64,000 nucleotides of DNA, taken from positions 2,634 to 66,633 of the forward strand of contig JALGVR010000001.1 in assembly GCA_025774605.1 (NCBI GenBank). Reading direction: 5' to 3'. Shown here piece by piece: positions 21,435 to 54,519 of the stretch. The notes under the pieces were generated by a model. It was not told the origin of the DNA and did no database searches. It saw nothing but the letters and a program-made list of their open reading frames with translations. The stretch is from a bacterium (GTDB lineage: Bacteria; Electryoneota; AABM5-125-24; Hatepunaeales; Hatepunaeaceae). A program made the translations under genes and the position numbers. The first letter of the stretch is position 1, and every line of letters starts with the position of its first letter.

Positions 21435-21485
21435 ATTGGGAATTTAAATAATTTTGGAAACGATACATTCCATATTGGAGATGCT

Positions 21486-22730
21486 TTGAACACCGACCTT
21501 TTAGTGATCGGCGGAGGGATCGCCGGCATTACGGCTGCCGTCGAAGCGGCGGAAACCGGCAGGGAGGTCGTACTGGTGGAGAAGCAGCACCAACTCGGCG
21601 GACGCGTGCTGCAGATGCACAAGTACTTCCCCAAGCTGTGCCCACCGGTGTGCGGTCTCGAGATCAACTTCCGCCGCATCAGGCAGAATCCGAAGATCAA
21701 GGTTTTAACCGGCGCCAAACCGACCAGTATCGAAGGCGTTCCCGGCGATCTGACCGCGATCATCCACGTCGAACCGAGCTATGTAAAGGCTGATTTCACG
21801 AGCGGCAAAGGTGTTGAAAATGACTGTCCGGTGGAAATCGCCGATCGGTTCAATTTCGGCATGAACAGGACCAAGGCGTTCAGACTGCCGCACGAACTCG
21901 CCTACCCCTATCGGTATGTCATCGATGAGGAATCGGCTCACGACCCGGCGATGAAGCAATTTATCGAATCGTCCGGCATCGAGGGCGTTGACCTCGACAT
22001 GCAGCCCGAAGACGTCGAGGTCAAAGCCAAGGCGGTTATCTGGGCGACCGGCTGGGAACCCTACGACGCGAACAAGCTTGATCACCTCGCCTACGGCAGA
22101 CTGCCGAACGTCGTCACGAACATGGAGATGGAACGGATCGCCGCGGTCAACGGCCCCACGAAGGGCAAAATCCTCCGACCGTCCGATCAGCAGCCGATCA
22201 CCAGAGCCGCCTTCGTTCAGTGCGCCGGCTCACGTGACGAGAACCATCTGCCGTACTGCTCGGCGGTATGCTGCATGGCTTCACTGAAACAGAGCCGTTA
22301 CATCAGGGAGCAGTACCCGGACGCGGAGATCCACATTTTCTTTATCGACGCCCGCACTCCCGGTCGGTGGGAGGATTTTTACCAGGAAGTTCAGGACGAT
22401 GAGAAGACCGTCATCCACCGCGGCAAGGTGGCTCGCATCGAGGAAGCCGGGAACGGCATGGTGACGCTGACCGCCGAGAATACCTTGACGGGCAAGTTGG
22501 AACAGGTGAGCGTCGACATGGCGATCCTTGCCACAGGCATGGTTCCGACGGTCGCCGTGGACGCGCCACCGATCAAAATCAACGTGGATGAATTCGGTTT
22601 CATACAGAATAACGGGACTTCCGTTGTTGTCGGCGCCGGCGTAGCCACCGGCCCCAAGGACGTCGCCTCGACCAATGAGGAAGCGACCGGCGCGGTCGTG
22701 AGGGCGCTGCAGATGATGACGGGGAAATAG
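21486..22730 (+). CDS. qmoA: QmoA (HdrA-like flavoprotein).
   Basis: 414 aa. LVIGGGIAGITAA FAD motif. HdrA-family CAGSRD...YCS.VCC motif. Confidence 0.85.
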   Translation: MNTDLLVIGGGIAGITAAVEAAETGREVVLVEKQHQLGGRVLQMHKYFPKLCPPVCGLEINFRRIRQNPKIKVLTGAKPTSIEGVPGDLTAIIHVEPSYVKADFTSGKGVENDCPVEIADRFNFGMNRTKAFRLPHELAYPYRYVIDEESAHDPAMKQFIESSGIEGVDLDMQPEDVEVKAKAVIWATGWEPYDANKLDHLAYGRLPNVVTNMEMERIAAVNGPTKGKILRPSDQQPITRAAFVQCAGSRDENHLPYCSAVCCMASLKQSRYIREQYPDAEIHIFFIDARTPGRWEDFYQEVQDDEKTVIHRGKVARIEEAGNGMVTLTAENTLTGKLEQVSVDMAILATGMVPTVAVDAPPIKINVDEFGFIQNNGTSVVVGAGVATGPKDVASTNEEATGAVVRALQMMTGK

Positions 22731-22733
22731 AAC

Positions 22734-25046: not shown

Positions 25047-26273
25047 ATGGCGGACAAAACCAAAGCCTCGGGAAAACTCGACGAGCTGAAAAAGGGTCCG
25101 TATCCGAGCTTCGTGAAGGAGATCGAGGCCGCCGCGGAAACCAACAAGATGGCGCATGACCTGATCGGTCAGCTTGAGCTTTCCTACGATGAAAAACTTT
25201 GCCACTGGAAACACGGCGGCATTGTAGGTGTGATGGGGTACGGCGGAGGCGTTATCGGTCGTTACAGCGATGTTCCGGAGAAATTTCCCAACGTGTCACA
25301 TTTTCACACCTTGCGCGTCAATCAGCCCGCTGCCTGGTTTTACAAGACGGATGCGTTGCGGAAGATATGCGACATGTGGGAGAAGCGTGGGTCTTCAGTA
25401 TTGAACGTTCACGGCTCAACCGGCGATATCGTTCTGCTGGGCACCACGACACCGCAATTGGAGCCCGTCTTCAATGAACTCACATCGCTGGGATTCGATC
25501 TGGGGGGATCGGGATCGGTACTCAGAACCCCGTCCTGCTGCGTGGGACCGGCGCGCTGCGAATGGGCGATGTACGACACCCTGAAATACGCTTACGAAAT
25601 GACAATGCGCTATCAGGATGAGCTGCACAGGCCGTACTTCCCCTACAAGTTCAAGTTCAAGTTTGCCGGCTGCCCCAATGACTGCGTGGCCTCGGTGGCG
25701 CGCGCCGACATGTCGTTCATCGGCACGTGGAAGGACGACATTCAGATCGACCAGGACAAGGTTCGCTGGTATGCTGAAGAGCGGAAGGTCGATATCGAAG
25801 ACGTGGTTGTGGAGCGCTGCCCGACCAAATGCATGGCTTGGGACGGCAAGGAGCTCTTCATCGACAACCGCAACTGCGCCAGGTGCATGCACTGCATCAA
25901 CGTCCTGCACCTCGCTCTCAAGCCCGGCAAGGACCGCGGCTGCACCATCATGCTCGGCGCGAAAGCCCCGATCCTTGAAGGCGCTCAGTTGTCGAGTGTC
26001 CTGGTGCCGTTCATGCGGATGGCGCCGCCTTATGGAGAGGACGAAGCCACCGCCGAAGACCTTCCGGAACTGATCGACAACATCTGGGAGCTGTGGGGCG
26101 AAGAGGGCAAGAACCGGGAACGTGTCGGCGAATTTATCCAGAGGATAGGCATGGGCAACTTCCTGGACGCCATCGGTCTCGAACCGCAGGCCGAGATGGT
26201 TGCGCATCCCCGCACAAACCCGTACGTCTTCTACGACCTGGGTAAGGATGAAGAAGAGGAAGAGGATGAGTAA
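25047..26273 (+). CDS. dsrA: Dissimilatory sulfite reductase alpha subunit.
   Basis: Collinear with Desulfovibrio DsrA ([27 protein letters not shown]; [19 protein letters not shown]; [11 protein letters not shown]). Confidence 0.9.
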
Positions 26274-26352: not shown

Positions 26353-27435
26353 ATGACAGCAGAACCAGCTGAAAGGTTGACTGATATAGGTCCACCGCAT
26401 TATGAGAGATTCCTGCCGCCGGTGGTGAAGGCAAACTATGGCAAGTGGGTGAGCCATGAAATCCTTCAACCGGGCGTACTGGTTCATACTGCGGAGTCCG
26501 GTGACAAGATCTATTCGATCAGGGCGGCAACCGCGCGCTTGATATCGGTGCCCAAGATACGTCAATTCTGTGATATTGCGGATAAATACTGCGACGGGCA
26601 CATTCGCTGGACGAGCCGCAACAACGTGGAATTTCTGACCACCAAGAAGGAGAATGTAGAACCCATCAAGCAGGCGGTTGAAGCGCTGGGTCATCCGGTG
26701 GGCGGCACCGGCAACAGTATAACCAACATCGTTCATACCCAGGGATGGGTTCATTGTCACTCGGCCGCCACCGATGCCTCCGGCATAGTCAAGGCGGTAA
26801 TGGATGAACTGATGGACGAATTCACCAACATGCGCCTGCCCGGCAAACTCCGCATCGCGCTGGCTTGCTGCCTTAACATGTGCGGCGCGGTTCACTGCTC
26901 GGACATCGCCATCCTTGGCATCCACCGCCGTCCGCCGACCATCGATCACGATCGGCTGCGCAAGATGTGCGAGATCCCGAACACCGTGGCAGCATGTCCG
27001 ACGGCGGCGGTCCGTCCGGTGACCATTGACGGCAACCCGTCGGTCGAGGTTATCGAAGAGCAGTGCATGTTCTGCGCCAACTGCTTCACGGTCTGTCCCT
27101 CCATGCCGCTCAACGATCCCGAATATGACGGCGTCTCAATCTGGGTCGGCGGCAAGGTGTCCAACGCGAGGCATGAGCCGACGTTCTCGAAGCTGGCGGT
27201 GCCATACATTCCCAACAATCCGCCGCGCTGGCCCGAAGTGGTCAGCGCCGTAAAGAACCTCGTCACCATCTGGACTGACAACGCCAGACCGTATGAACGG
27301 ATGGGCGAATGGATCGAACGGATCGGATGGCCGCGCTTCTTCGAGATGGCTGGAATTGACTTCCAGAAGGAACATATTGATGACTTCAAGCATGCAGTAA
27401 CAACCTACAAGACGTCTGCACACTTGAGGTTCTAA
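26353..27435 (+). CDS. dsrB: Dissimilatory sulfite reductase beta subunit.
   Basis: 360 aa. Siroheme/[4Fe-4S] Cys motifs ([20 protein letters not shown]). Follows dsrA. Confidence 0.9.
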
Positions 27436-27454: not shown

Positions 27455-27721
27455 ATGGCTGATATGGTACCAGTCGAAGAGATTGCCGATGCTATGTTCA
27501 AGATGATTAAGGACGCTGCCGGCAAGAAGCAGTACAAATCAATGGATCTGCAGAAGGCGATGAAGGAGCTCTATCCGGGTCGAGTGGATAAACAGCTCTG
27601 CAAGGCGGCGATCAAGCAGCTTATCAATTCAGGACGCTGCATTTACACCTATTTCGGAGGCAGCTACATCGAGCTTCCTCACGTCGAAGGTGCGGCGAAT
27701 CCTGAACAGACGGAAACGTAG
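27455..27721 (+). CDS. dsrD: DsrD (small winged-helix protein, a marker of reductive-type Dsr).
   Basis: 88 aa. The position after dsrB and the C-terminal pattern (INSGRCIYTYFGGSYIEL) resemble Desulfovibrio DsrD. Confidence 0.7.
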   Translation: MADMVPVEEIADAMFKMIKDAAGKKQYKSMDLQKAMKELYPGRVDKQLCKAAIKQLINSGRCIYTYFGGSYIELPHVEGAANPEQTET

Positions 27722-29164: not shown

Positions 29165-30862
29165 ATGGCTTTAGTAAAGAAGAAGAAGAAACTCACCATA
29201 AAAAGTGTCGGCGCTTCCGGCGCTTCCGGAGTGGAACACAGCCCGCGCCGGCCCTATCAGATCGAGAAACTTGCACCGTGTATGGGCGGCTGCCCGCAGG
29301 GGACGGATATCCGCGGTTTCCTGATGAAGATCGCCCAGGCGGAGAAATACGGACAACCGCAGGAGGAAGCCTTCAGGGAGGCCTGGGAAATACTCACTGC
29401 AACCAACCCGCTTCCGGCGATCTGCGGTCGCGTCTGTCCCCACCCGTGCGAGGACGGCTGCAACCGCAAGGAGAAGGACGGCGCGCTGGCGATAAACAAC
29501 GTCGAACGTTTCCTGGGCGACTGGGGGATCAAGCAGGAACTGAAGTTGAAAAAATCGACCGACGAATCCTATCCCGAGAAGGTCGCCATCATCGGCGCCG
29601 GACCGGCCGGTCTTTCGGCCGCCTATCATCTGGCGAAGCGCGGCTACGGGGTCACGATCTTCGAGTCGTTCCCCAAGGTCGGCGGAATGCTGCGTTACGG
29701 CATTCCCCGGTACCGGCTGCCGCGCGGGATCATAGACGCGGAAGCGCAGAAGATATTCGATATGGGCGTGGAGATTAAAACCAACGTCACCGTCGGCAAA
29801 GATATACCCTACGAGAAGTTGCAGCAGGACTTTGACGCCGTATTCGTCGGTATCGGCGCCCATGGCGGCAAGAAGCTCCACGCACCCGGTGAAGATGCGC
29901 CGAACGTTTACAGCGGAGTCGAATACCTTCGCCTGGTGAACAGCGGGAAGCCACCGGAGGTTGGAGATAAGGTGGTCGTCGTCGGCGGCGGTGATACGGC
30001 GATCGACGCCGCACGGGTCGCCCTGAGGCTCGGCGCCAAGGTCACCCTGCTCTATCGCCGCACGCGCAACGAGATGCCGGCCATCGAGGAGGAGATCGTT
30101 GGCGCCGAAGAGGAGAACATCGAGTTTCACTTCCTTGCCGCCCCGATTGAGATTATCCAGAAGGATGGTTTGGCTGTCGAAATGCGCTGCCAGAACATGG
30201 AGCTCGGCGAACCGGATGAATCCGGCAGACGCCGCCCGGTGCCGATCGAGGGAGATGAATTCACCATTCCTGTCACCGCGGTCATCTCGGCGATCTCCCA
30301 GGAGCCTGACTGGGGCGGATTGGATCACCTGCACGAGGGCAGGGACTGGGTCAAGGTGGACGAATACGGTCAGACCAAATACGAAGGGACATACGCCGGC
30401 GGCGATGTCCTGGATCTGGGACTGGTGACGATTGCAATCTATCAGGGTCGCCGAGCCGCCGACACGATTCATAATCGGTTCCGCGGGATTGAACTGAAGC
30501 CGGAGGAGATGAAGAAGGTTATCAGCGCCGACAAGCTTCTGCTCGACTGGTACGAGAACGCCCAACGTCATGAGGCGACGAAGATCCCCCCCGATGAGCG
30601 GTTCAAGGATCCGTGGTCGGAGATAACAGAAACGCTGCCTGACAGCGACATTATCGCTGAAGCCAGACGCTGTATGAGCTGCGGTATATGCTTCGACTGC
30701 GGCAATTGCTGGAGCTACTGCGGCGAGAACGTGGTTGTCAAACCGCTCGTACCCGGCGATCCGTACAAGTTCAAACTCGAACTGTGCAACGGTTGCGATA
30801 AATGCGCTGAAAACTGCCCTTGCGGATACCTCGAGATGAAAGATCCAGCAAGTCTACCATAA
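29165..30862 (+). CDS. dsrL: DsrL-like NAD(P)H:acceptor oxidoreductase (GltD-like Fe-S flavoprotein with a C-terminal ferredoxin domain).
   Basis: GltD-type N-terminus (CMGGCPQG...CGRVCPHPCE). FAD and NAD Rossmann motifs (IIGAGPAGL; VVVVGGGDTA). C-terminal Cys clusters (CMSCGICFDCGNC; CNGCDKCAENCPC). Located between dsrN and dsrC. Confidence 0.7.
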   Translation: MALVKKKKKLTIKSVGASGASGVEHSPRRPYQIEKLAPCMGGCPQGTDIRGFLMKIAQAEKYGQPQEEAFREAWEILTATNPLPAICGRVCPHPCEDGCNRKEKDGALAINNVERFLGDWGIKQELKLKKSTDESYPEKVAIIGAGPAGLSAAYHLAKRGYGVTIFESFPKVGGMLRYGIPRYRLPRGIIDAEAQKIFDMGVEIKTNVTVGKDIPYEKLQQDFDAVFVGIGAHGGKKLHAPGEDAPNVYSGVEYLRLVNSGKPPEVGDKVVVVGGGDTAIDAARVALRLGAKVTLLYRRTRNEMPAIEEEIVGAEEENIEFHFLAAPIEIIQKDGLAVEMRCQNMELGEPDESGRRRPVPIEGDEFTIPVTAVISAISQEPDWGGLDHLHEGRDWVKVDEYGQTKYEGTYAGGDVLDLGLVTIAIYQGRRAADTIHNRFRGIELKPEEMKKVISADKLLLDWYENAQRHEATKIPPDERFKDPWSEITETLPDSDIIAEARRCMSCGICFDCGNCWSYCGENVVVKPLVPGDPYKFKLELCNGCDKCAENCPCGYLEMKDPASLP

Positions 30863-30890: not shown

Positions 30891-31205
30891 ATGATCTTCG
30901 AATGGGAAGATATCAAAATCGAAGTTGATGAAGACGGTTTTATGCAGGAACCGGATCAGTGGAACGAACGCGTTGCGCTGGCTCTGGCGAGCACCGAGGG
31001 TGTTTCCGAGCTGACCGATGAGCATTGGAAGCTCGTCAACTACCTTCGTGAGTATTACCAGAAATTCGGCATTGCGCCGATGATTCGCAAGCTTTGCAAG
31101 GAAACCGGGTTTCCACTGAAAAAGGTCTACGAACTGTTTCCGTCAGGACCGGCAAAGGGCGCCTGCAAGGTCGCAGGTCTCGCCAAACCGACCGGTTGTG
31201 TCTGA
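30891..31205 (+). CDS. dsrC: DsrC (TusE/DsrC family) with the two conserved C-terminal cysteines.
   Basis: 104 aa. The C-terminus ...KGACKVAGLAKPTGCV has CysA at the penultimate position and CysB 11 residues upstream. Confidence 0.9.
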   Translation: MIFEWEDIKIEVDEDGFMQEPDQWNERVALALASTEGVSELTDEHWKLVNYLREYYQKFGIAPMIRKLCKETGFPLKKVYELFPSGPAKGACKVAGLAKPTGCV

Positions 31206-31218
31206 TCGGTTTATAAAT

Positions 31219-31260
31219 ATGCGGGATTTTCGAGGTGCTTAAGCCTTGAAAATCCCGCAT
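31219..31260 (+). terminator. 13-bp perfect-stem hairpin immediately after dsrC. Possibly a terminator or mRNA-stabilising stem-loop.
   Basis: atgcgggattttc-[16 nt loop]-gaaaatcccgcat. No T-tract follows. Confidence 0.4.
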
Positions 31261-31303
31261 GATATATGCGTCATCTCTATTCCATTTGGTTGTAATACCG
31301 AGT

Positions 31304-31831
31304 ATGCGGTTCGATGACATCCTGAAGAGGAGAGAGAAGGCCGTCAAAACCAGATGGCTGAATCTCACCCTGGATACATATCCCGCCGATTCGTCCGGAT
31401 TCCTGAAAAATCAGAAGAATCAGTTCCTTAATCCTGTTGGAAACACTATTTCCCGGGAGATCGGTGTATTATACCGGTCGTTTCTGACCGAGACTGATCC
31501 TGAAACCATCGCCAATTCCCTTGACAGCATCATCAGGATCAGGTCCGTGCAGGAGTTCTCACCCTCTCAGGCGACCGGTTTCATCCTTCTCCTTAAACGC
31601 GCGGTCAGGGAGGAGCTTGCCGATGAGATACGATCCGCAGACTGTTTCGATGAACTGCAGCGTTTCGAGTTGAAGGTTGACGAGATGGCGCTGGCGGGGT
31701 TTGACGCATACGCGAGGTGCCGGGAGAGGCTGTTCGAGGTGAAGCTGAATGAGCTTAGACGCCAGACGAGCATCTCCCTGGCGCGATACAATCGTACCGG
31801 TCAACAGTCGGAGCAGTTAAATGATTCCTGA
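31304..31831 (+). CDS. dsrT: Candidate DsrT (RsbRD_N-like small protein upstream of dsrMKJOP).
   Basis: The N-terminal pattern W.NL.LDTYPADSSGFL...F.NPVGNT matches my recollection of the DsrT/RsbRD_N family. Position immediately before dsrM. The start was moved to MRFDD. Confidence 0.45.
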   Translation: MRFDDILKRREKAVKTRWLNLTLDTYPADSSGFLKNQKNQFLNPVGNTISREIGVLYRSFLTETDPETIANSLDSIIRIRSVQEFSPSQATGFILLLKRAVREELADEIRSADCFDELQRFELKVDEMALAGFDAYARCRERLFEVKLNELRRQTSISLARYNRTGQQSEQLNDS

Positions 31832-31876: not shown

Positions 31877-32869
31877 ATGAACGCCCTGTTTTCCCTGGTT
31901 GCAGTCGTCGTCCTGATGTTGCTGGCGCTGTTCGGAACATATGGCGCCGGTCTGCAGTACCTTTTCGGTGTTATTATTCCCTACATTGCCATCGTTACCT
32001 TCCTGGTCGGATTTGTCCTGCGCGTTGTCAGGTGGGCGCGGTCACCGGTTCCTTTTCGGATTCCGACCACGTGCGGGCAGCAGAAGTCCCTGCCTTGGAT
32101 AAAACACCATGAGCTCGAAAATCCGAGTAACGGCTTCAGTGCATTTCTGCGCATGGCGCTGGAGATACTGTTTTTCCGCTCCCTGTTCCGCAACACGAAA
32201 GCCGATCTCAAGAGCGGGCCCAAGCTGGTTTACGGCTCCAACAAGTGGCTCTGGCTGGGTGGTCTGGTCTTTCATTGGTCTTTGCTGGTTGTATTCATCA
32301 GGCATTTCAGATTTTTTACCGAGCCGGTCCCGTTCGGCATCAACCTGCTCGAAGAACTGGATTCATTCTTCCAGGTGGGACTGCCGATAATCTACATCAC
32401 CGATATTCTGCTGCTGGGTGCGCTGACCTACCTGGTGGGACGCAGGCTGCTTGACGCCAGGCTCCGATACATCTCGCTCAACGCGGATTACTTTCCCCTG
32501 TTCCTGATCCTGGGCATCGGTTGCACCGGCGCCTGGATGCGGTACTTCGCCAAGGTCGACATCGTCGGAGTCAAACAGCTCAGCCTGGGGCTGTTCAACC
32601 TTCATCCGGTGGTTCCGGAGGGGATAGGCGCCTTCTTCTACATCCACCTGTTTCTGGTGAGCGTTCTGATCGCCTATTTCCCGTTCAGCAAGCTGATGCA
32701 CATGGGAGGGATATTCCTCAGCCCGACCCGCAACCTGGCTAACAACAACCGCGTGAAACGACATGTCAATCCCTGGAATCCCGTGGTAAAGATACACACC
32801 TACGAGGAATACGAGGATGAGTTCAGGGAGGTCATGAAGGAAGCGGGCATGCCGTTGGAAAAGGAGTAA
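31877..32869 (+). CDS. dsrM: DsrM (NarI/HdrE-like membrane cytochrome b).
   Basis: 330 aa, 5-6 TM helices with conserved His. Precedes dsrK. Confidence 0.85.
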   Translation: MNALFSLVAVVVLMLLALFGTYGAGLQYLFGVIIPYIAIVTFLVGFVLRVVRWARSPVPFRIPTTCGQQKSLPWIKHHELENPSNGFSAFLRMALEILFFRSLFRNTKADLKSGPKLVYGSNKWLWLGGLVFHWSLLVVFIRHFRFFTEPVPFGINLLEELDSFFQVGLPIIYITDILLLGALTYLVGRRLLDARLRYISLNADYFPLFLILGIGCTGAWMRYFAKVDIVGVKQLSLGLFNLHPVVPEGIGAFFYIHLFLVSVLIAYFPFSKLMHMGGIFLSPTRNLANNNRVKRHVNPWNPVVKIHTYEEYEDEFREVMKEAGMPLEKE

Positions 32870-32871
32870 CG

Positions 32872-34488
32872 ATGTCTGAAACACCAACACCGGAAGAACT
32901 GGTCAAAGTGGACTACAAACCGCCTCGCAAGGCTTGGATGGACAGCAAGCCGGAGATGCGCCGGGGTGTTATCAACTGGTCGGCAGTGCCCAAGAACGTG
33001 GAATATCTGGATCTTCCCTTTCCCCGCAAATGGCAGCCGACCGATGATGACTGGAAGCTTCCGGAGAACTGGAAGGAGATTATCCTCGAAGGGATGAGGG
33101 ATCGACTCAAGCGGTTCCGCACCTTCCAGATCTTCATGGATATCTGTGTCCGATGCGGCGCCTGTGCCGATAAATGCCACTTCTTCATCGGCTCCGGCGA
33201 TCCGAAGAACATGCCGGTCCTCCGGGCTGAACTGCTGAGGGCCGTGTACAGGAGGGAGTTCAATCTTGCCGGTAAGCTGATGGGCAGGATGGCGGGGGCG
33301 CGGGAATTGACGGTTCCGGTGCTCAAGGAATGGTTTTACTACTTCTTCCAGTGCACCGAATGCCGCCGCTGTTCGGTCTTCTGTCCCTACGGCATCGACA
33401 CCGCCGAGATCACCATGATGGCGAGGGAGCTAATGAACCTCATCGGTGTCAGCATCGACTGGATAGTAACCCCCGCCGCCAACTGCTTCCGCACCGGAAA
33501 TCACCTCGGTATCCAGCCGCACGGCTTCCAGGACAGCGTCAATTTTGCGATAGACGACCTCGAGGACATCACCGGCATCAGGGTTGACGCGCCGGTCAAC
33601 CGGAAGGGCGCGGAGATTCTGTTCGTCGTGCCCTCGGCGGACTACTTCGCCGACCCCCACTACTACGGCTTTCTCGGTTATATGGCGCTGTTTCATGAGA
33701 TCGGTCTTGACTACACGTTCAGCTCGTTCGCCTCGGAGGGCGGCAACTTCGGCCTGTTTCACTCCAACGAGATGATGAAACGGTTGAACTCCAAGATCTA
33801 CATGGAAGCCAAACGACTGGGCGTCAGGTGGATACTCGGCGGCGAGTGCGGTCACATGTGGCGCGTGCTGAACCAGTACATGGACACGATGAACGGCCCC
33901 GCCGACTTCCTCGAGGTGCCGAAATCGCCGCTGACCGGCACGGTGTTCGAGAATGCGAAATCCACCAGGATGGTGCATATCTGCGAGTTCACCGCCGACC
34001 TGATCAAACACGACAAGTTGAAGCTGGACAAGAGCCGCAATGATCGCTGGCGGGTGACATTCCACGATTCGTGCAACCCGGCGCGGGCGATGGGCATACT
34101 GGAGGAGCCGCGTTACATCATCAATAACGTCTGCAACAACTTCTTTGAGATGCCTGAGGGCACGACGCGCGAGCAGACCTTCTGCTGTGGCGCCGGTGCC
34201 GGGCTGGGCACCGAGGAGAACATGGAGATGAGGATGCGCGGCGGTCTGCCGCGAGCCAACGCGGTCAAATACGTACACGACAAGTACGACGTAAACCTGC
34301 TGACCTGCATGTGCGCCATCGACAAGGCGGTGCTGCCGGCGCTGATGGATTACTGGGTGCCCGGTGTACAGATCGGCAGTGTTCACGAACTGGTCGGGAA
34401 TGCACTGATTATGAAAGGGGAAAAGAAGAGATCGAATGACCTGCGCGGCGAACCGATACCGGGAAAGGAGGCGGCTGAAGATGTTTGA
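32872..34488 (+). CDS. dsrK: DsrK (HdrD-like catalytic Fe-S subunit with CCG domain).
   Basis: CVRCGACADKC and CTECRRCSVFCP ferredoxin motifs. CCG-type Cys (CCGAGAG; C..CNPARAMG). Confidence 0.9.
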   Translation: MSETPTPEELVKVDYKPPRKAWMDSKPEMRRGVINWSAVPKNVEYLDLPFPRKWQPTDDDWKLPENWKEIILEGMRDRLKRFRTFQIFMDICVRCGACADKCHFFIGSGDPKNMPVLRAELLRAVYRREFNLAGKLMGRMAGARELTVPVLKEWFYYFFQCTECRRCSVFCPYGIDTAEITMMARELMNLIGVSIDWIVTPAANCFRTGNHLGIQPHGFQDSVNFAIDDLEDITGIRVDAPVNRKGAEILFVVPSADYFADPHYYGFLGYMALFHEIGLDYTFSSFASEGGNFGLFHSNEMMKRLNSKIYMEAKRLGVRWILGGECGHMWRVLNQYMDTMNGPADFLEVPKSPLTGTVFENAKSTRMVHICEFTADLIKHDKLKLDKSRNDRWRVTFHDSCNPARAMGILEEPRYIINNVCNNFFEMPEGTTREQTFCCGAGAGLGTEENMEMRMRGGLPRANAVKYVHDKYDVNLLTCMCAIDKAVLPALMDYWVPGVQIGSVHELVGNALIMKGEKKRSNDLRGEPIPGKEAAEDV

Positions 34489-34876
34489 CGGCTGGAAGAT
34501 CATCGTCGGGCTGATCATATTCATCACTCTGGCGACTGTTCCTTTCTGGTATGATGCGGCTGCGGGGAAGGGGACGGATGCGCCGGACATCCGGATTGAG
34601 ACGAAGGACGTTCCGGGCAGGGATCAGTGTGTGATGCCGGCGGAATACATGAGGTCTGATCACATGGAGCTGCTGAACGAGTGGCGCGACCAGGTGGTCA
34701 GGGGCAACCAGAGGGTTCATGTAACAGCTGATGGCCGAAAATACAGCCGCAGCCTTACCAATACCTGCCTGGATTGCCATTCCAACAAGGATACGTTCTG
34801 TGACAGGTGTCACGATTACATGTCAGTCAAGCCGTATTGCTGGGAATGCCATCTCGAACCGGAGGTGATGAAATAA
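34481..34876 (+). CDS. dsrJ: DsrJ (periplasmic triheme cytochrome c). The start was moved to MFDGWKII, which has an SD aggagg.
   Basis: Three CxxCH motifs (CLDCH, CDRCH, CWECH). An N-terminal TM/signal anchor. Confidence 0.8.
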   Translation: MFDGWKIIVGLIIFITLATVPFWYDAAAGKGTDAPDIRIETKDVPGRDQCVMPAEYMRSDHMELLNEWRDQVVRGNQRVHVTADGRKYSRSLTNTCLDCHSNKDTFCDRCHDYMSVKPYCWECHLEPEVMK

Positions 34877-35643
34877 TGGGTCTCGACAGAAGAAATTTCA
34901 TAAAGATCGCCGGCTTGTCAACCCTGGGACTGGCAGGGAAACCCGCCGTTGATGCCATTGCCCGCATCAGGCTGCCGGAGGAGGCCCCCCTGACGGCGAA
35001 ACGTTGGGCGATGGTCATCGATTTGAGGAAGTGCAGGGAAAATCCGGACTGCAACGAAGCCTGTATTCATGCCTGTCACAAGGTTCACAACGTCCCGGAT
35101 TTCAAGAACCCGAAGGATGAGATCAAGTGGATATGGGAGGAGCGGTTCGAGCACGCCTTCCATGACCAGTCACAGGAGTATGCTGACGAGAGCCACAGGG
35201 AGTTGCCGGCGCTGGTACTCTGCAATCACTGCGACGATCCGCCCTGCGTCAGGGTATGCCCGACCGAGGCGACCTGGAAGCGTGATGAGGACGGCGTTGT
35301 GATGATGGACTGGCACCGCTGCATCGGCTGTCGTTACTGTCTGGCGGCTTGTCCTTACGGCGCGCGCAGCTTCAACTGGCGCGATCCCAGACCCTTCATC
35401 GAGGAGATTGAACCCGATTTCCCCACCCGCATGAGGGGTGTGGTTGAGAAATGCACGTTCTGCGAAGAGCGTCTGGCGAGGGGTGAAATGCCCGCCTGCG
35501 TGGAAGCCTGCGACGCCGGGGCCTTGACGTTCGGCGACCTCGAAGATCCCGAATCCAGGGTCAGGGAACTGCTTCGGACACACTTCACCATCCGTCGCAA
35601 GCCCGGCCTGGGTACGCAACCGTCTGTTTACTACATAATATGA
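34876..35643 (+). CDS. dsrO: DsrO (periplasmic Fe-S ferredoxin-like subunit with Tat signal).
   Basis: Twin-arginine motif (RRNFIKIAGL). Four Cys clusters of HybA/DmsB-type. Its ATG overlaps the dsrJ stop. Confidence 0.85.
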   Translation: MGLDRRNFIKIAGLSTLGLAGKPAVDAIARIRLPEEAPLTAKRWAMVIDLRKCRENPDCNEACIHACHKVHNVPDFKNPKDEIKWIWEERFEHAFHDQSQEYADESHRELPALVLCNHCDDPPCVRVCPTEATWKRDEDGVVMMDWHRCIGCRYCLAACPYGARSFNWRDPRPFIEEIEPDFPTRMRGVVEKCTFCEERLARGEMPACVEACDAGALTFGDLEDPESRVRELLRTHFTIRRKPGLGTQPSVYYII

Positions 35644-35650
35644 GGGAGGC

Positions 35651-36805
35651 ATGTTAGAGAAAGCGTTAAGCGGCAGCAGGGGATACTGGATATGGCTCGC
35701 CGTCCTGGTCGGCATTATCTTCATCGGCTTCCTCTTCTGGCTCAAGCAGTTCCACCAGGGGTTGATGATCACCGGGCTGAGCCGCGATGTCAGTTGGGGG
35801 TTCTACATCGCCCAGTTTACCTTTCTGGTCGGCGTGGCCGCTTCGGCCGTGATGGTTGTGCTTCCTTACTATCTTCACAATTACAGGGCATTCGGCAAGG
35901 TAGTCATACTGGGTGAGTTTCTGGCCATCCCGTCCGTGATCATGTGCATGACGTTCATCTTCGTTGACATGGGGCAGCCGTTCAGGATCCTCAATGTATT
36001 CATTCACCCGACGCCGCACTCGATGATGTTCTGGGATACGGTTGCTCTGGGTGGTTATCTGCTGCTTAACCTGTTGATAGGCTGGACGACGCTGGGCGCC
36101 GAACGCAAGTCGATCCCGCCGCCCAAATGGATAAAGCCATTCATCATTATTTCCATCCCCTGGGCGGTCAGCATCCACACGGTGACGGCTTTTCTGTACG
36201 CGGGGCTCGCCGCGCGTCCCTTCTGGATGACCGCTGTCCTGGCGCCGCGCTTCCTGGCATCGGCGTTCTCGTCCGGCCCCGCGCTGCTGATCCTCCTCAT
36301 TCTTCTGCTCAGAAAGCTGACGGATTTCGACGCCGGCAGGGAACCGGTGCAGAAGCTGGCGGTGATAGCCGCGTACGCCATGAGCGTAAACGTGTTCCTG
36401 ATCCTGATGGAGGTGTTTACCGCACTTTACAGCGGCATACCGGAGCATTCGATACATCTTAAGTATATGTTCGTCGGAATCGAGGGAAATATGGCATTGG
36501 TGCCGTGGATGTGGTTGTCGTCGATCCTGGCGGTTTTCACTCTTCTCCTGATCATTCCCCCGAAAACCAGGCGCAACGAAGCCGTACTTGCCGTTGCCTG
36601 CGTCACGCTGTTTCTCTCTATCTGGATCGACAAGGGCATGGGAATGATCGTCGCCGGATATGTCCCCAACCCGTTGGGCGAGGTTACCCAATATTTCCCG
36701 ACCGTGCCCGAGCTGCTCATCTCGCTGATGGTCTATGCTGTCGGGGCGCTTATCATTACGGTTCTGTACAAGGTTGCGTTGTCTGTCAGGGCGAGCGTTG
36801 CGTAG
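35651..36805 (+). CDS. dsrP: DsrP (NrfD/PsrC-family integral membrane quinone-interacting subunit).
   Basis: 384 aa, about 10 TM. NrfD-like. Completes the dsrMKJOP module. Confidence 0.85.
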   Translation: MLEKALSGSRGYWIWLAVLVGIIFIGFLFWLKQFHQGLMITGLSRDVSWGFYIAQFTFLVGVAASAVMVVLPYYLHNYRAFGKVVILGEFLAIPSVIMCMTFIFVDMGQPFRILNVFIHPTPHSMMFWDTVALGGYLLLNLLIGWTTLGAERKSIPPPKWIKPFIIISIPWAVSIHTVTAFLYAGLAARPFWMTAVLAPRFLASAFSSGPALLILLILLLRKLTDFDAGREPVQKLAVIAAYAMSVNVFLILMEVFTALYSGIPEHSIHLKYMFVGIEGNMALVPWMWLSSILAVFTLLLIIPPKTRRNEAVLAVACVTLFLSIWIDKGMGMIVAGYVPNPLGEVTQYFPTVPELLISLMVYAVGALIITVLYKVALSVRASVA

Positions 36806-36950
36806 ATCGAACCACATGATGAAGAACCGGGTTTGGGCGGCTGCAGGAATGAGGCGGTGTAGCGCGGAAGGCGGATATGGCGCGTTATCCGGCGTTATCC
36901 GGAATCTCATTAAGCCCCATATTGAAACTTGGAAAGGCGGAGTGTTATAA

Positions 36951-38633
36951 GTGGAGGTGGTTGTCATAGGCGGATCCGCCGCCGGACTTAAGGCGGCCTG
37001 CCGTATCAGCAGACTGCAGCCGGACGCAGGGGTCAGAGTCCTCGTCAAGGACAGGCGCTTCGCGTATTCCAACTGTGGACTGCCCTATTACCTGTCCGGC
37101 GACATCGAGAGCTTTGACGCGCTCATCACCGCTCCCAACGGCACGATCAAGGATGAGAGATACTTTCGTGATGTGAAGAATGTCGAAGTTTTCACCGGGC
37201 GTGAGGTTGTCAAGATTGACCGCGACGCCAGGTTGATCCGCTGCCATGATTCCGAAAGGAATCGGGAGGAGACGTATCCATTCGACAGGCTGGTGCTCTC
37301 AACGGGATCAAGCCCGATTATACCGGCGATCCCGGGTGTGAATGCGCCTGGTGTGCTCACCTTCACCAAGGCCGATGACGCGATCGCGCTGAGAACTGAT
37401 CTTGAAGCCAATCGCATAAGCAGGATCACCATAATCGGGGCGGGATTCATCGGGCTTGAACTCTGCGAGGCGTTCAGGGCGATGTGGGGGGTTGACGTTG
37501 ACCTCGTTGAGCTGCAGAATCAGGTTCTCTCCGGCCTGGTCGATACGGAACTCTCCGAAATCATTGAGGACGAAATACGCAGCCATGGCGTTAATATCCG
37601 GCTTGGGTGCGGTTGTCATGAGATTGTCAGGGAAGGTGAGAGGTTCTGTATCTTCGATCATGCCGGCGAGATGTTCGAATCGGACCGGATAATCATTGCC
37701 GCCGGTGTTCGTCCGAATGTCGAGCTGGCGAGGGAGGCCGGCCTGGAGATCGGGGTGACGGGGGGAATTAAGGTCAACAGTCACCTGCGGACATCGGATC
37801 CTGATATTTATGCGGCGGGTGATTGCGTCGAACTGCCCGACGCGGTGGATGGACGGGCCGGGTCATGGACGCTCGGATCGCTGGCGTCGCGCATGGGACG
37901 CGTGGTCGGCGACAACATCTGCAACGGCGACTCCCGTTTCGGCCCGGTGGTCGGTACGACCGTGCTTAAGATATTCGACATCACCATCGGTTCGGCGGGG
38001 CTTACCAGAGCGGACTGTAAGGATCGGGGTTACGAGATAAATGAGTGCTGGGGAACCTTTCACGATCGCCTGCATTATTTTCCTGAAGCCGGACCCACCA
38101 GAGCCAAGATAATATATGATCCGACCGATGGCAGGATTCTCGGCTTCCAGGCGGTCTCGCACGGCAATATCGTGCACACCCTGAATATTGCGTCGCAGAT
38201 CATGCGCAACAGCGGGACGCTGGATGACCTGAACGATATAGAGCATGCATATTCTCCGCCGTTTGCACAGCAGTTCGAGACCCTTCACTACCTTGCATTT
38301 ATTGCGGAGAACAGCCGCGTCGCCGGTGTGAAGCTTGTATCGCCGGCCGAGTTCACCAGCCTGCCCGATGAGACGCTGATTCTCGACGTACGGACAAAGG
38401 CTGAGATCGAAGGACGGCCACTCAATGGTGGAACGCGGCGTGTAATCGAGATACCGGTCGAAGAGCTGAGGGCGCGTTTGAACGAAATACCCAGTGCCGG
38501 CAAGGTTGTAACTGTCTGTCAAATGGGGGGACGCGGCTGGGACGCGGCGCTGATGCTGAGACGCGCCGGATTCACGGACGTCGGGATTCTCGCCGGAGGG
38601 GCTCTATTTTTGCCAACCGGTACTGCAGCTTGA
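36951..38633 (+). CDS. CoA-disulfide reductase / NADH oxidase-family flavoprotein fused to a C-terminal rhodanese domain (NADH-dependent persulfide/polysulfide reductase-like). GTG start.
   Basis: Single redox Cys in the SNCGLPYY motif (Cdr/Nox family). FAD/NAD Rossmann folds. A C-terminal rhodanese with active Cys in VCQMGGRG. Confidence 0.7.
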   Translation: MEVVVIGGSAAGLKAACRISRLQPDAGVRVLVKDRRFAYSNCGLPYYLSGDIESFDALITAPNGTIKDERYFRDVKNVEVFTGREVVKIDRDARLIRCHDSERNREETYPFDRLVLSTGSSPIIPAIPGVNAPGVLTFTKADDAIALRTDLEANRISRITIIGAGFIGLELCEAFRAMWGVDVDLVELQNQVLSGLVDTELSEIIEDEIRSHGVNIRLGCGCHEIVREGERFCIFDHAGEMFESDRIIIAAGVRPNVELAREAGLEIGVTGGIKVNSHLRTSDPDIYAAGDCVELPDAVDGRAGSWTLGSLASRMGRVVGDNICNGDSRFGPVVGTTVLKIFDITIGSAGLTRADCKDRGYEINECWGTFHDRLHYFPEAGPTRAKIIYDPTDGRILGFQAVSHGNIVHTLNIASQIMRNSGTLDDLNDIEHAYSPPFAQQFETLHYLAFIAENSRVAGVKLVSPAEFTSLPDETLILDVRTKAEIEGRPLNGGTRRVIEIPVEELRARLNEIPSAGKVVTVCQMGGRGWDAALMLRRAGFTDVGILAGGALFLPTGTAA

Positions 38634-38664: not shown

Positions 38665-39843
38665 ATGCCCCTGACCTGCTGTGGCATTAACCATCGTACA
38701 GGCTCCCTCGCAGACAGGGAGCCTTTTCAGCTTCAACGCGGCGAACTGGCTCAGGCGACGCTTGACTTCAAACGGATCTCCGGCGTGGAGGAGCTGGTCG
38801 TCCTGGCGACATGCAACCGCGTCGAGTTCTACTGCCGCGGCGCCGAAAAGCCCGACCCGAGGAATTCAATCATCGAGTTCTTTCGGCGGCGCGGCGTCGG
38901 GCAGCCGGAGCGGCTGCGACAGCATTGGTTCTTCCGTCAGGGAACGAGTGTAGCGCGGCATCTGTTCAAGGTGGCGTCAGGGCTCGACTCGCCGCTGCTT
39001 GGCGAGTATCAGGTTCTCGGTCAGGTCAGGGACGCTTACAGCCTTGGTTGTTCAGTCAGCGGTCCGGGCAAGTTTCTGCACAAGCTCTTTCACCATGCCT
39101 TCCAGATCGCCAAGCGGGTTCATTCAGAAACCGGGATAGGCGCAGGAGTTCAGGGTTTGGCGGGCGCTTCCCTGGAGCTGGTCAGGAAGCGGTTCGATGG
39201 TGAGCTTGCCGGCAGGCGGGCTCTGATCGTCGGCGTCAACAGCTCCACGGAGATGCTGTTGTCGCGGCTCGTGCGAGAGGGAGTTGATGTCACCGTCGCC
39301 AACAGGACCGTGTACAGCGCCGAGAAGATTGTCCGACCGTTCAACTCGACGGCAATCGCTCTTGATGATATGGATGAAGCGCTCAATACGGTTGACATGC
39401 TGTTCAGCGCCACATCCACCCCCGATTTCATGGTCGAGCCGGAGAGACTTTTACAGCGGGATCCCGGGCGTATGCTGGTCGCGGTGGACCTGGCGATTCC
39501 ACGCGACATAGACCCGCGTGTCGGGGATAACGAGCGTGTATTTCTGCTTGACCTCGACGACCTGAAGCATTACCTTGATTCCGTGCGGGAGGAGCGTGCG
39601 ACTGATCTGCCCTACGCGTTGGAACTGATCGAGGAGCAGGTCAAGGCTTACGAATTCTGGCGACGCAACACCGTTAAGGGTGGAAACAGCGCGCTGAGAC
39701 AGATACTGGAGCAGGACCGCCGGGACATCCTGTCCAAGTTCAGGGAAGGCTTCCGCCGCGGTGACCTGAAGGCGCTCGACGCGCTCACCAAGAACCTCTA
39801 CCGGCAATTCCTCCGCAGGATGAACAACTCCAGCGCTGATTGA
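38665..39843 (+). CDS. hemA: Glutamyl-tRNA reductase.
   Basis: LATCNRVEFY active-site Cys region, GEYQVLGQVRDAY, and an NADPH-binding domain. Confidence 0.85.
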   Translation: MPLTCCGINHRTGSLADREPFQLQRGELAQATLDFKRISGVEELVVLATCNRVEFYCRGAEKPDPRNSIIEFFRRRGVGQPERLRQHWFFRQGTSVARHLFKVASGLDSPLLGEYQVLGQVRDAYSLGCSVSGPGKFLHKLFHHAFQIAKRVHSETGIGAGVQGLAGASLELVRKRFDGELAGRRALIVGVNSSTEMLLSRLVREGVDVTVANRTVYSAEKIVRPFNSTAIALDDMDEALNTVDMLFSATSTPDFMVEPERLLQRDPGRMLVAVDLAIPRDIDPRVGDNERVFLLDLDDLKHYLDSVREERATDLPYALELIEEQVKAYEFWRRNTVKGGNSALRQILEQDRRDILSKFREGFRRGDLKALDALTKNLYRQFLRRMNNSSAD

Positions 39844-40274: not shown

Positions 40275-40916
40275 ATGTACCTTCCTCTCTTTTTTAATGC
40301 CGACCTGACGAACTGCCTGGTTATCGGCGGAGGTGATGTGGCTCTCCGCAAGATAGAAGTATTGCTGAAAGCCGGCTGTAATCTCCTGGTCATCTCACCG
40401 CGGACTGTCGCCGGGATATCGGAACTCATCAGGGACGGGAAGGTCGCCCATCTGCGCCGGAAATACGAATATGGCGACTGTATGGGTAATCAGTTGATAA
40501 TTTCGGCAACAAGCGACAGTGAAGTAAATACGCAGGTTTCTGAGGAGGCGCGCGCCCTGGGCATACCGGTAAACGTTGTGGACGAACCTGATCTCTGCAG
40601 CGTGATTTTCCCGGCGATCGAACGGGATGAACCGCTGACGATCGCGGTCAGCACCGGTGGCAGGGCTCCGTTCATGGCTGCTGAACTGCGTGACAGGCTG
40701 AGGGGGACGGTTAAGGGGTGGGGCAGATGGGTCGAGATCGCCGGGGAGTTCAGGGAGTCGGTCAGAAAAGCCGTTACGGAACCGGCTGAGCGCGGCGGAT
40801 TGTACCGCAGGTTCGTTGCCGCGGGGATGCCTCCCGATGAGGTAGCGCCCCCCGAAGATCCCGACCTTGACAGGTGGATGGACTGGCTGCAAAGACTTGA
40901 GGACATGAACAGATGA
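40275..40916 (+). CDS. sirC: Precorrin-2 dehydrogenase / sirohydrochlorin ferrochelatase (CysG N-terminal domain type; SirC/Met8-like).
   Basis: NAD-binding LVIGGGDVALRKIEVLLKAGC plus the CysG_N dimerisation region. 213 aa. Confidence 0.75.
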   Translation: MYLPLFFNADLTNCLVIGGGDVALRKIEVLLKAGCNLLVISPRTVAGISELIRDGKVAHLRRKYEYGDCMGNQLIISATSDSEVNTQVSEEARALGIPVNVVDEPDLCSVIFPAIERDEPLTIAVSTGGRAPFMAAELRDRLRGTVKGWGRWVEIAGEFRESVRKAVTEPAERGGLYRRFVAAGMPPDEVAPPEDPDLDRWMDWLQRLEDMNR

Positions 40917-42460
40917 GCCGTGACACCTCGGAAACTGGAACCATTTACCTGGTGGGCGCAGGCCCGGGACATCCCGGCTTGATAACCAGGCTCGGTCACC
41001 AACTGTTGCAGGATTGCGACGCGGTGGTTTACGACGACCTGGCTCCGTATGAGCTGGTCGCCGAGCTGCCGCCGAATATCGTCAGGTATTACGTGGGTAA
41101 ACGCGCCGGCAGGCATTCCCAGCCGCAGAAGGAGACCAACAGCCTGCTGATCAGCCTGGCGGAAAAGGGGCTGAACGTGGTCAGGTTGAAGGGCGGCGAT
41201 CCGTTCATCTTCGGCAGGGGCGGTGAGGAGGTAACCAGGCTCAAGGAGGCGGGGGTGCCCTTCCGGATCGTTCCCGGCGTGACGGCGGTCACAGCTGTCG
41301 CTGCGGGCGCCGGCATTCCGCTGACCGACCGGCGGGATGCAGCATGGCTGCTGATGGCGACAGGTCATGAAGCTGCTTCTGCGTCGCTGCCGGTACCGTG
41401 GGAGGAGATCGCCGCACTCAGGGGGGGGACAGTGGTGATTTACATGGGTGTCGGCGCATTGCCGGAGATTGTGAAACGGTTGATATCGGGTGGAGCGGCG
41501 CCGGATACTCATGCGGCGGTGGTCGTCAGCGGTTATACGGGCGCTCAGCGGATTGTTACTGCGGAGCTCGCCGATCTGCCGCGATCCTGCGCGGAGCAGG
41601 ATGTGCAACCGCCGGCGCTGGTGATACTTGGTGACGTGGTGAAGCGGATGGATGGGGTGGGCTGGATGCAGCCGGGTGTGCTGGCCGGCAGGAGGATACT
41701 GATTACTCGACCATACGAGGCTTCCGCCGAAATCTGCGGCATACTGCGCAAGTATGGCGCCGAGCCGCTGCCGTTGCCGACCATTGAAATCCGACCGTTT
41801 GAGGATGTTCCGGGCTGGGACGGCTTTGAACGGTCGTCGGGGCGTCACGGCTGGATTGTTTTCACCAGCCGCGCCGGCGTCCAACATTTCCTGGATGGTT
41901 TATCACGGCGCGGTCATGATCTGCGCTCCCTGCATGATCTTGAGATTGCCGCGGTCGGACCGGGAACCGCTGGTGCTTTGTGGGAGAGGGGACTGAAAGC
42001 CGGTTTGGTCCCGACTGTCGCCACGGTGGAGCGGTTGGCCGAGGAGTTAACCGCGGAAAAGAACCTGCGTGGAGCGGTTGTCGTAAGGGTTCGCGGCGAT
42101 CTAAGCGATGATACGATCGAGAAAGCCGTCGCTTCGAAGGGGGCAGGGATTGTCCGGTTGACGGTCTATCGCACCATGACCCCCGAATGGGAGCCGCACT
42201 GGGTGGAGAACGTCAAGGAATATCCCCCGGATTACATCACTTTCACGAGTGGCTCGACGGTTGACGGGTTCGTCAAAATCCTCGGTCGGGGAGAGGCGTT
42301 GTCGGTGGCTGCGCGGTCGAAGGTCGTATCAATCGGTCCCGTGACGACAAAGGTGATCGAGGATTATGGTATGGAAGTCGCGGCGGAAGCCGCATTGCAC
42401 ACTCAGGAAGGGGTGGTGAAGGCGATTCTTCTTCTGGGGAGGCCGGTCACTCCTGTCTGA
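40913..42460 (+). CDS. cobA/hemD: Bifunctional uroporphyrinogen-III C-methyltransferase / uroporphyrinogen-III synthase (CobA-HemD fusion).
   Basis: The N-terminal SUMT shows VYLVGAGPGHPGLITR and GGDPFIFGRGGEE. The C-terminal roughly 250 aa are HemD-like. 4-bp overlap with sirC. Confidence 0.85.
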   Translation: MSRDTSETGTIYLVGAGPGHPGLITRLGHQLLQDCDAVVYDDLAPYELVAELPPNIVRYYVGKRAGRHSQPQKETNSLLISLAEKGLNVVRLKGGDPFIFGRGGEEVTRLKEAGVPFRIVPGVTAVTAVAAGAGIPLTDRRDAAWLLMATGHEAASASLPVPWEEIAALRGGTVVIYMGVGALPEIVKRLISGGAAPDTHAAVVVSGYTGAQRIVTAELADLPRSCAEQDVQPPALVILGDVVKRMDGVGWMQPGVLAGRRILITRPYEASAEICGILRKYGAEPLPLPTIEIRPFEDVPGWDGFERSSGRHGWIVFTSRAGVQHFLDGLSRRGHDLRSLHDLEIAAVGPGTAGALWERGLKAGLVPTVATVERLAEELTAEKNLRGAVVVRVRGDLSDDTIEKAVASKGAGIVRLTVYRTMTPEWEPHWVENVKEYPPDYITFTSGSTVDGFVKILGRGEALSVAARSKVVSIGPVTTKVIEDYGMEVAAEAALHTQEGVVKAILLLGRPVTPV

Positions 42461-54461: not shown

Positions 54462-54519
54462 TTATACCTTGATAAATCCGCTTTTCTATTTGGTAATTGT
54501 GGCAATTTACAATCACGCC

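Follow-up and report, generated by a model that had tools for sequence, protein, structure and literature searches.

An Npsr-type gene directly follows dsrMKJOP

The stretch analysed here (64,000 nucleotides of contig JALGVR010000001.1, assembly GCA_025774605.1; hereafter the window) comes from a bacterium of the Electryoneota and carries a complete dissimilatory sulfur island, comprising an H+-pyrophosphatase gene, sat, aprA, a gene for a CxxCxxCC protein, qmoC/A/B-like genes, the dsr genes, an Npsr-type flavoprotein gene, and genes for sirohaem precursors. The Npsr-type gene, a fusion of the coenzyme A (CoA)-disulfide reductase and rhodanese kind (CoADR-RHD), is the subject of this report. 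Sulfide production worldwide is driven by the Dsr pathway, whose genes (dsrABCDLNT-MKJOP) are considered to be well catalogued. The features around the gene are the following:

31877–32869 (+): dsrM (NCBIfam equivalog)
32872–34488 (+): dsrK (NCBIfam equivalog)
34436–34876 (+): dsrJ (NCBIfam equivalog)
34807–35643 (+): dsrO (NCBIfam equivalog)
35651–36805 (+): dsrP (NCBIfam equivalog)
36806–36950 (+): spacer between dsrP and the Npsr-type gene, 145 nt
36951–38633 (+): Npsr-type flavoprotein gene (CoADR-RHD fusion), by its open reading frame, Pfam domains, PDB match, and AlphaFold2 model
38665–39843 (+): hemA (NCBIfam, over cut-off)
40275–40916 (+): sirC, CysG N-terminal type (NCBIfam, over cut-off)
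40913–42460 (+): cobA/hemD fusion (NCBIfam, over cut-off)

The gene is an intact open reading frame for 560 amino acids (aa), running from a GTG start to a TGA stop with a Shine-Dalgarno-like GGCGGAG 8 nt 5' of the start, and residue 1 of its product aligns with residue 1 of the Archaeoglobus fulgidus enzyme (AfNpsr). Its guanine-cytosine content is close to that of dsrMKJOP (0.577 and 0.568). DsrM, DsrK, DsrJ, DsrO, and DsrP each score over their NCBIfam equivalog cut-offs, and these matches bear out the placement directly after dsrMKJOP that a first-pass annotation, made from the letters alone, had proposed. That annotation made no mention of what comes next: hemA starts 31 nt 3' of the gene and is followed by sirC and cobA/hemD.

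The spacer measures 145 nt rather than the 146 nt first given, and the accompanying statement that it lacks an obvious terminator holds: we found no terminator-like hairpin in it, and it folds no better than shuffled controls (z = 0.25). It matched no Rfam family, a scan for sigma-70 promoters returned none, and an alignment of the four long spacers between dsrP and the gene revealed no conserved promoter, operator, or RNA element. The window's spacer does contain a perfect 10-nt tandem repeat, GCGTTATCCG x2 (36882–36901), ~50 nt 5' of the start codon, which could be a candidate site for a regulator to bind; the long spacers of three relatives (L001, L005, and L010) do not share the repeat.

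Family assignment and structure

The product of the gene matches Pyr_redox_2 (PF07992, 9.7e-62), PF00070, Pyr_redox_dim (PF02852), and Rhodanese (PF00581), all above gathering scores, and both Pfam and Foldseek place its main body in the two-dinucleotide-binding fold for FAD and NAD(P)H with a dimerisation domain. The C-terminal part is located as follows:

38328–38615 (+): rhodanese domain, ~residues 460–555 (PF00581 at residues 467–550)

The rhodanese match reaches 28.7 bits against a cut-off of 22.2. Together with the motifs SNCGLPYY (residues 40–47) and VCQMGGRG (residues 522–529), these domains confirm the initial description of a single-Cys flavoprotein with a C-terminal rhodanese.

The best solved relative is AfNpsr (NoxA-3; 6PFZ, 9e-110, aligned end to end), followed by the Shewanella Npsr (3NTA) and then by BaCoADR-RHD and EfCoAPR, with plain CoADR, Nox, and Npx enzymes far lower. 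An AlphaFold2 model of the window protein (predicted local distance difference test, 92.4; predicted template-modelling (TM) score, 0.89) superposes on 6PFZ in Foldseek with TM scores of 0.94/0.97 at 1.7 Å over 553 columns, the rhodanese domain included. The likeness to NADH-dependent persulfide reductases that had been noticed at first sight is thus upheld by the 6PFZ and 3NTA matches and by the structural agreement, and membership in the Npsr/CoADR-RHD enzyme class is well supported.

Two other names were considered and rejected. As a CoA-disulfide reductase the protein misses the equivalogs TIGR03385 and NF007123 (333.3 vs. 578.8 and 287.1 vs. 458 bits), and as an H2O-forming NADH oxidase it reaches 201.8 bits against a cut-off of 600 (NF046103) and carries a rhodanese domain; because both scores fall under the equivalog cut-offs, neither name is suitable. 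Among PDB entries, Nox and Npx proteins match at 150–201 bits vs. 371 bits for Npsr.

The resemblance to AfNpsr extends over the full length at ~36% identity and includes Cys42, the rhodanese Cys, the Glu that excludes NADPH, and a lid loop (60–66) over the CoA pocket; A. fulgidus is, moreover, likewise a dissimilatory sulfate reducer. The two proteins differ in that AfNpsr has Ser four residues ahead of the redox Cys where the window protein has Ala, and in their phylogenetic placement (see below). The A. fulgidus npsr gene is not known to belong to the dsr cluster of its host. AfNpsr acts on persulfides and polysulfide but does not reduce disulfides, and its authors left the role of Npsr in a sulfate reducer unexplained (PMC7969121).

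The Npsr of Shewanella loihica PV-4 (3NTA/3NT6; 8.5e-94, TM 0.90) shares the two-domain architecture and both cysteines; however, it is only ~35% identical, lacks the lid loop (a 6-residue gap), has an insertion of ~15 residues, and serves a sulfur- and polysulfide-respiring host that does not use Dsr. The same fusion and fold recur in Bacillus anthracis CoADR-RHD (3ICR) and Enterococcus faecalis CoAPR (8A56) (TM 0.89–0.93), but these are ~30% identical and belong to Firmicute CoA redox or sulfide-stress (cst) regulons, not to respiration.

Gene order in relatives

The genomes closest to the window are metagenome-assembled genomes of Candidatus (Ca.) Hatepunaea or Ca. Electryoneaceae, or are labelled Calditrichota. 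All five species-representative genomes (proteins 57–71% identical) keep the order dsrN-L-C-T-MKJOP, the gene, and hemA-sirC-cobA/hemD, and at 53% and 47% identity the same layout recurs with 15–22 nt from dsrP and 1–3 nt to hemA. The gene follows dsr(N-L-C-T-)MKJOP in 19 loci (L001–L008, L010, L012–L014, L016, L020, L025, L041, L046, L074, and L092), and hemA-sirC-cobA/hemD lies downstream of it in L001–L008, L013, L014, L020, L041, and L092. The gap from dsrP ranges from 10 to 346 nt (median 59, n=19 loci), with most relatives at 10–60 nt. In L010 (43% identity), dsrMKJOP and the gene remain together, and an Rrf2 regulator and qmo/apr genes on the opposite strand take the place of hemA; in other relatives at 41–44% identity the gene is found beside qmoAB-like genes, beside a cluster of DsrMK-like and Rieske-cytochrome b genes, or 6 kb from a dsrOP pair.

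A census of 80 metagenome loci extended this pattern to a second phylum. Nine of the 80 have dsrC-T-MKJOP followed by the gene, seven of these with haem genes next, and in the nine the DsrK and DsrP proteins are 57–80% identical to those of the window and the flavoprotein only 34–38%. These nine loci are Zixibacteria, and the layout was seen again on a named HGW-Zixibacteria contig. Around some 65 other family members in the census, the nearest 7 kb contain no dsr, qmo, or apr genes. The view of the gene as an unusual accessory to a sulfate-reduction locus needs dividing: it is apt for model sulfate reducers, but in Electryoneota and Zixibacteria the gene is the rule. One Zixibacteria locus (L092, 10727–16059) has a longer haem block (hemA, sirC, hemC, cobA/hemD, and hemB), such that the whole route from glutamyl-tRNA to the sirohaem precursor is joined to the dsr operon.

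Since the 145-nt spacer lacks a terminator and the gap to hemA is 31 nt, the window fits a single dsr-to-haem transcript, and co-transcription of the gene with dsrP is likely here and in most relatives, as judged from the spacing, with gaps of 10–40 nt and in one case an overlap of 11 nt. The co-transcription raised by the first-pass annotation is accordingly probable in the window but not universal, given a terminator-like hairpin in L010.

The proximity to hemA raises the possibility that the protein is instead a partner of hemA or of sirohaem synthesis, for example by keeping reduced a thiol group in glutamyl-tRNA reductase or in a sirohaem enzyme. The 1–31 nt separating the gene from hemA in the window, L006, and L008, the downstream hemA in Zixibacteria, and a locus in which the gene and hemA form a pair without dsr genes (L061) speak in its favour; yet five loci (L010, L025, L046, L053, and L093) have dsrP followed by the gene without hemA. 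The L061 pair, too, stands beside an insertion-sequence-like gene, a transposase-like open reading frame of the InsA/helix-turn-helix type (9996–10418), which suggests that rearrangement separated it from what was once a dsr-haem cluster. We know of no family member with a role in tetrapyrrole synthesis, which also counts against this explanation, and we consider it very improbable.

Phylogeny and repeated recruitment

In a neighbour-joining tree built from 203 sequences with 100 bootstrap replicates, the family divides into two clades with a bootstrap of 100. Clade X holds both characterised Npsr enzymes, AfNpsr among them, together with copies from Firmicutes and Negativicutes; the window protein and the Zixibacteria branch fall in clade Y (98 leaves), as do nearly all copies linked to dsr. 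When scored against profile hidden Markov models, 49 of 49 Zixibacteria-branch sequences scored 35–115 bits higher with a profile of the remaining clade-Y sequences than with the clade-X profile. Among loci with readable context, the gene stands directly after dsrP in 18 of 27 from clade Y vs. 1 of 37 elsewhere (Fisher p = 2e-8, a value that overstates independence because the loci are phylogenetically related). The linkage to Dsr, which the first-pass annotation would have given up had the gene proved a generic one, thus survives: relatives down to 34% identity retain the slot after dsrP, and the generic members outside dsr contexts form a separate clade.

The sole dsrP-adjacent case outside clade Y is a Smithella/Smithellaceae locus (L053). 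On a 100-kb Smithellaceae contig, the end of dsrP shares 11 nt with a clade-X copy, behind which comes an acetate kinase gene and no haem genes. As a clade-X copy occupies the place after dsrP in Smithellaceae, at least two recruitments into this slot have taken place, drawing on different branches of the family. An outer-clade copy is encoded divergently to dsrAB in L089.

Catalytic and signature residues

The residues on which the comparison turns are encoded as follows:

37074–37076 (+): codon of redox-active Cys42, next to FAD (aligned to AfNpsr Cys42 and S. loihica Npsr Cys43)
37509–37511 (+): codon of Glu187 (equivalent to AfNpsr Glu183 by alignment)
38049–38060 (+): W367-G-T-F370, part of the clade-Y signature (clade alignment)
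38517–38534 (+): rhodanese loop C523-Q-M-G-G-R528, with Cys523 at 38517–38519 (aligned to AfNpsr C519 and R524)

Cys42 is the single redox Cys, with no second Cys nearby and no CxxxxC pair, and in the alignment its position is Cys in 135 of 138 clade-Y and 78 of 78 clade-X sequences. Position 187 is Glu or Asp in all 138 clade-Y sequences; E183 of AfNpsr excludes the 2'-phosphate of NADPH and confines that enzyme to NADH (PMC7969121), and Glu187 predicts the same preference for NADH in the window protein. Tyr376 and Tyr434, conserved in the family alignment, would supply the active-site tyrosines from the partner subunit and correspond to Y361' and Y419' of Staphylococcus aureus CoADR, going by the HYYP and AYAPPY motifs and not by an overlay. 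Three basic residues of helix 1 (K14, R18, and R21) are common to the window protein and AfNpsr, a conservation that is only suggestive as a sign of CoA binding.

In the rhodanese domain, the C-x4-R loop is present, with Cys523 kept in 137 and Arg528 in 136 of the 138 clade-Y sequences. These residues bear on whether the protein could be an NADH oxidase for oxygen defence that shields the Dsr enzymes in a microaerotolerant host. AfNpsr does have measurable NADH oxidase activity (PMC7969121), and Ca. Electryoneota have been inferred to be facultative anaerobes at oxyclines (PMC9324843). However, true Nox and Npx enzymes lack a rhodanese domain and are poorer matches, and an oxidase would have no need of a near-invariant rhodanese Cys and Arg; we regard this role as extremely improbable.

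Clade Y has signature positions of its own: F138, L311, R314, W367-G-x-F370, E431, and P444. The window protein has F138, L311, R314, W367, G368, F370, and E431, with Thr444 in place of P444, and AfNpsr is without the signature (WGxF, R314, E431, and others). Within clade Y, W367 is conserved in 91%, G368 in 88%, and F370 in 92% of sequences, where clade X has L/M, V, and G. The lid loop was also tried as a marker of clade Y and rejected; nearly all family members have it, and only the Shewanella-like ones are without.

Proposed function

Taking these comparisons together, the window protein is most likely a cytoplasmic, homodimeric, FAD-containing, NADH-dependent persulfide (sulfane-sulfur) reductase. 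In the mechanism suggested by homology, Cys523 on the rhodanese surface would take up sulfane sulfur as a persulfide and hand it to the thiol of a tightly bound CoA, whose pantothenate arm would swing ~25 Å to Cys42 of the partner subunit; H2S would then leave, and the remaining Cys42-S-S-CoA mixed disulfide would be reduced by NADH via FAD. Such a swinging pantothenate arm has been described for EfCoAPR, in which the rhodanese Cys lies ~27 Å from the redox Cys and in vivo persulfidation was found on the rhodanese Cys only (PMC9405070).

We reasoned that in a dsr operon this chemistry could use NADH to turn stray or accumulated sulfane sulfur around DsrAB, DsrC, or DsrK into H2S. Its substrates might be low-molecular-weight persulfides, polysulfide, a persulfide derived from DsrC or DsrK, or the sulfane atom of by-product thiosulfate, and the outcome would be that DsrC, CoA, and other thiols stay free while sulfite or sulfide returns to the main path. 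DsrAB is known to yield thiosulfate and trithionate as side products. Because the trisulfide chemistry on DsrK makes reactive sulfane intermediates and DsrAB makes side products, a clean-up role is favoured, and on balance we judge that the gene encodes an accessory of the Dsr pathway that clears sulfane sulfur at the DsrC/DsrMKJOP step. We infer this role from gene order and clade structure, which support the Dsr-linked handling of sulfane sulfur suggested at the outset.

One part of that earlier suggestion fares less well, namely the link to the DsrC trisulfide. According to a 2026 preprint, free DsrC-trisulfide is inert, and it is binding to DsrK that triggers hydrolysis to Cys-S-S-OH (bioRxiv 10.64898/2026.08.25.746951); direct reduction of the free trisulfide is thereby disfavoured. 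The same observations bear on the idea that the protein is a soluble NADH:DsrC-trisulfide reductase, a cytoplasmic and non-energy-conserving bypass of DsrMKJOP. The gene does lie near dsrC and dsrMKJOP, and the same operon encodes another NAD(P)H-linked flavoprotein, DsrL (29165–30862 in the window), which already sets an example of pyridine nucleotides being linked to the Dsr pathway (PMC10591310). DsrL is a GltD-like iron–sulfur flavoprotein of unrelated architecture, without a redox Cys or rhodanese domain, and is thought to trade electrons with DsrAB, not sulfane sulfur. Given that free DsrC-trisulfide reportedly resists reductants and is activated only on DsrK, that the Npsr/CoADR-RHD enzymes assayed act on small persulfides and polysulfide, and that a complete DsrMKJOP is always co-encoded, which makes a bypass less likely, we find this explanation very improbable.

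A more serious competitor is general protection from sulfide and reactive sulfur, in which an EfCoAPR-like CoA-persulfide reductase would free CoA and low-molecular-weight thiols and receive no sulfur from Dsr proteins; its position in the dsr operon would merely time its synthesis to millimolar sulfide production. EfCoAPR adopts this fold too (TM 0.89/0.93), sulfide induces it via CstR (PMC9405070), the majority of family members occupy non-dsr contexts, and the L010 gene sits in a terminator-bounded unit of its own by an Rrf2-family regulator. Simple co-regulation nevertheless fails to explain why the slot after dsrP is kept across phyla despite a protein identity of 34–38%, why it was filled independently in Smithellaceae, or why the dsr-linked copies group in a clade of their own, marked by particular signature residues. 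We therefore hold protection alone to be rather unlikely.

Several observations weigh against a sulfane-sulfur clean-up role in the Dsr pathway, in addition to the relatedness of the loci that underlie the Fisher test. Gene order is an association and not a mechanism, and the carriers are all uncultured. Well-studied sulfate reducers manage without a dsr-linked copy, so the function is not essential to the core pathway, and the copy in a cultured species, Desulfosarcina ovata, lies in a generic context. Even within clade Y, four loci (L017, L022, L035, and L037) have no dsr neighbour within 7 kb, and L061 retains hemA alone and no dsr gene. At the residue level, the sub-branch of the window has Ala38 four residues before Cys42, vs. 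Ser in 78 of 78 clade-X sequences. Finally, the interval between dsrP and the gene in L010 (~7900–7990) contains a strong terminator-like hairpin (GATGGCTCCC-loop-GGGAGCCATC, then T6).

A more specific form of the clean-up role is also conceivable, in which the Dsr pathway of sulfate reducers in the FCB group and some Desulfobacterota would have in clade Y a dedicated, as yet unnamed member, an NADH-driven ‘sulfane-sulfur proofreader’ that would take sulfur directly from a DsrC or DsrK persulfide or perthiosulfenate, or, via its rhodanese domain, from by-product thiosulfate. We put this forward tentatively, as a possible but doubtful elaboration. If true, the proofreader reading would tie the pyridine-nucleotide pool to the last sulfide-forming step and would explain the Npsr of Archaeoglobus.

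Novelty and significance

Ca. Electryoneota (AABM5-125-24) have been inferred to be sulfate reducers (PMC9324843) and are reported to have the complete Dsr set, dsrD and dsrL-2 included (PMC10591310); neither paper mentions the Npsr-type gene. In the searchable literature, outside which subscription-only papers fall, we found nothing relevant that links Npsr or CoADR-RHD to dsr operons. The enzyme family is thus known, while the dsr-embedded clade, its breadth (Electryoneota, Zixibacteria, and relatives), and the recruitment in Smithellaceae are without report in that literature. Present annotations label the protein as ‘FAD-dependent oxidoreductase’ or ‘NADPH-dependent 2,4-dienoyl-CoA reductase/sulfur reductase-like’.

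An additional gene keeps a constant position behind dsrP in at least three candidate phyla, and Smithellaceae have a different paralogue there. This suggests that the Dsr pathway of many uncultured sulfate reducers includes a means of controlling by-products with sulfane sulfur, or a side route linked to NADH. The finding further provides a testable hypothesis for the role of Npsr in sulfate reducers that was left open in PMC7969121, and the gene could join the marker sets for dsr loci in metagenomes.

Other genes of the island and minor observations

The remaining dsr genes of the window are these:

25047–26273 (+): dsrA (NCBIfam)
26353–27435 (+): dsrB (NCBIfam)
27455–27721 (+): probable dsrD, 88 aa, by its position after dsrB, size, and conservation in L001–L004
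27722–29107 (+): dsrN (NCBIfam)
29165–30862 (+): dsrL (NCBIfam)
30891–31205 (+): dsrC (NCBIfam)
31259–31831 (+): dsrT-like gene (Pfam RsbRD_N)

The 88-aa open reading frame at 27455–27721 did not match Pfam DsrD and gave a weak winged-helix match (TBPIP, E = 0.003); its counterparts after dsrB in L001–L004 are 58–93% identical. It may be a divergent DsrD that annotation of dsr genes by hidden Markov models would miss.

Between aprA and dsrA (19442–25001, +) are encoded the CxxCxxCC protein (276 aa), a QmoC-like iron–sulfur/membrane protein, qmoA, and qmoB, an order of qmoC-A-B vs. the usual qmoABC. The CxxCxxCC protein accompanies apr/qmo in L010 as well. In L039, L049, and L085, homologues of it (35–37% identical to the window's) occur ~3–5 kb downstream of CoADR-RHD genes, which share their outer branch with the dsrAB-adjacent copy of L089; the proximity of the CxxCxxCC protein to outer-clade CoADR-RHD genes may represent another association that recurs in the family.

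The interval of L010 at ~7900–7990 also holds a TATAAT-like box, and the gene for the Rrf2-family regulator is just downstream on the other strand. The L010 gene looks separately transcribed and is possibly under Rrf2 control. A Smithellaceae-type locus (L093, 1360–3914) has an extra DsrM/DsrK-like pair (314 aa and a 537-aa iron–sulfur protein with CCG domains) between dsrC and dsrMKJOP, and L053 has the same extra DsrK-like gene (27% identity).

The window encodes a second pyridine nucleotide-disulfide oxidoreductase (53580–55986, −; 488 aa) of the two-domain type with a strong dimerisation match, beside a radical SAM gene resembling that for lipoyl synthase; this protein is probably a dihydrolipoyl dehydrogenase, unrelated to the Npsr-type gene.

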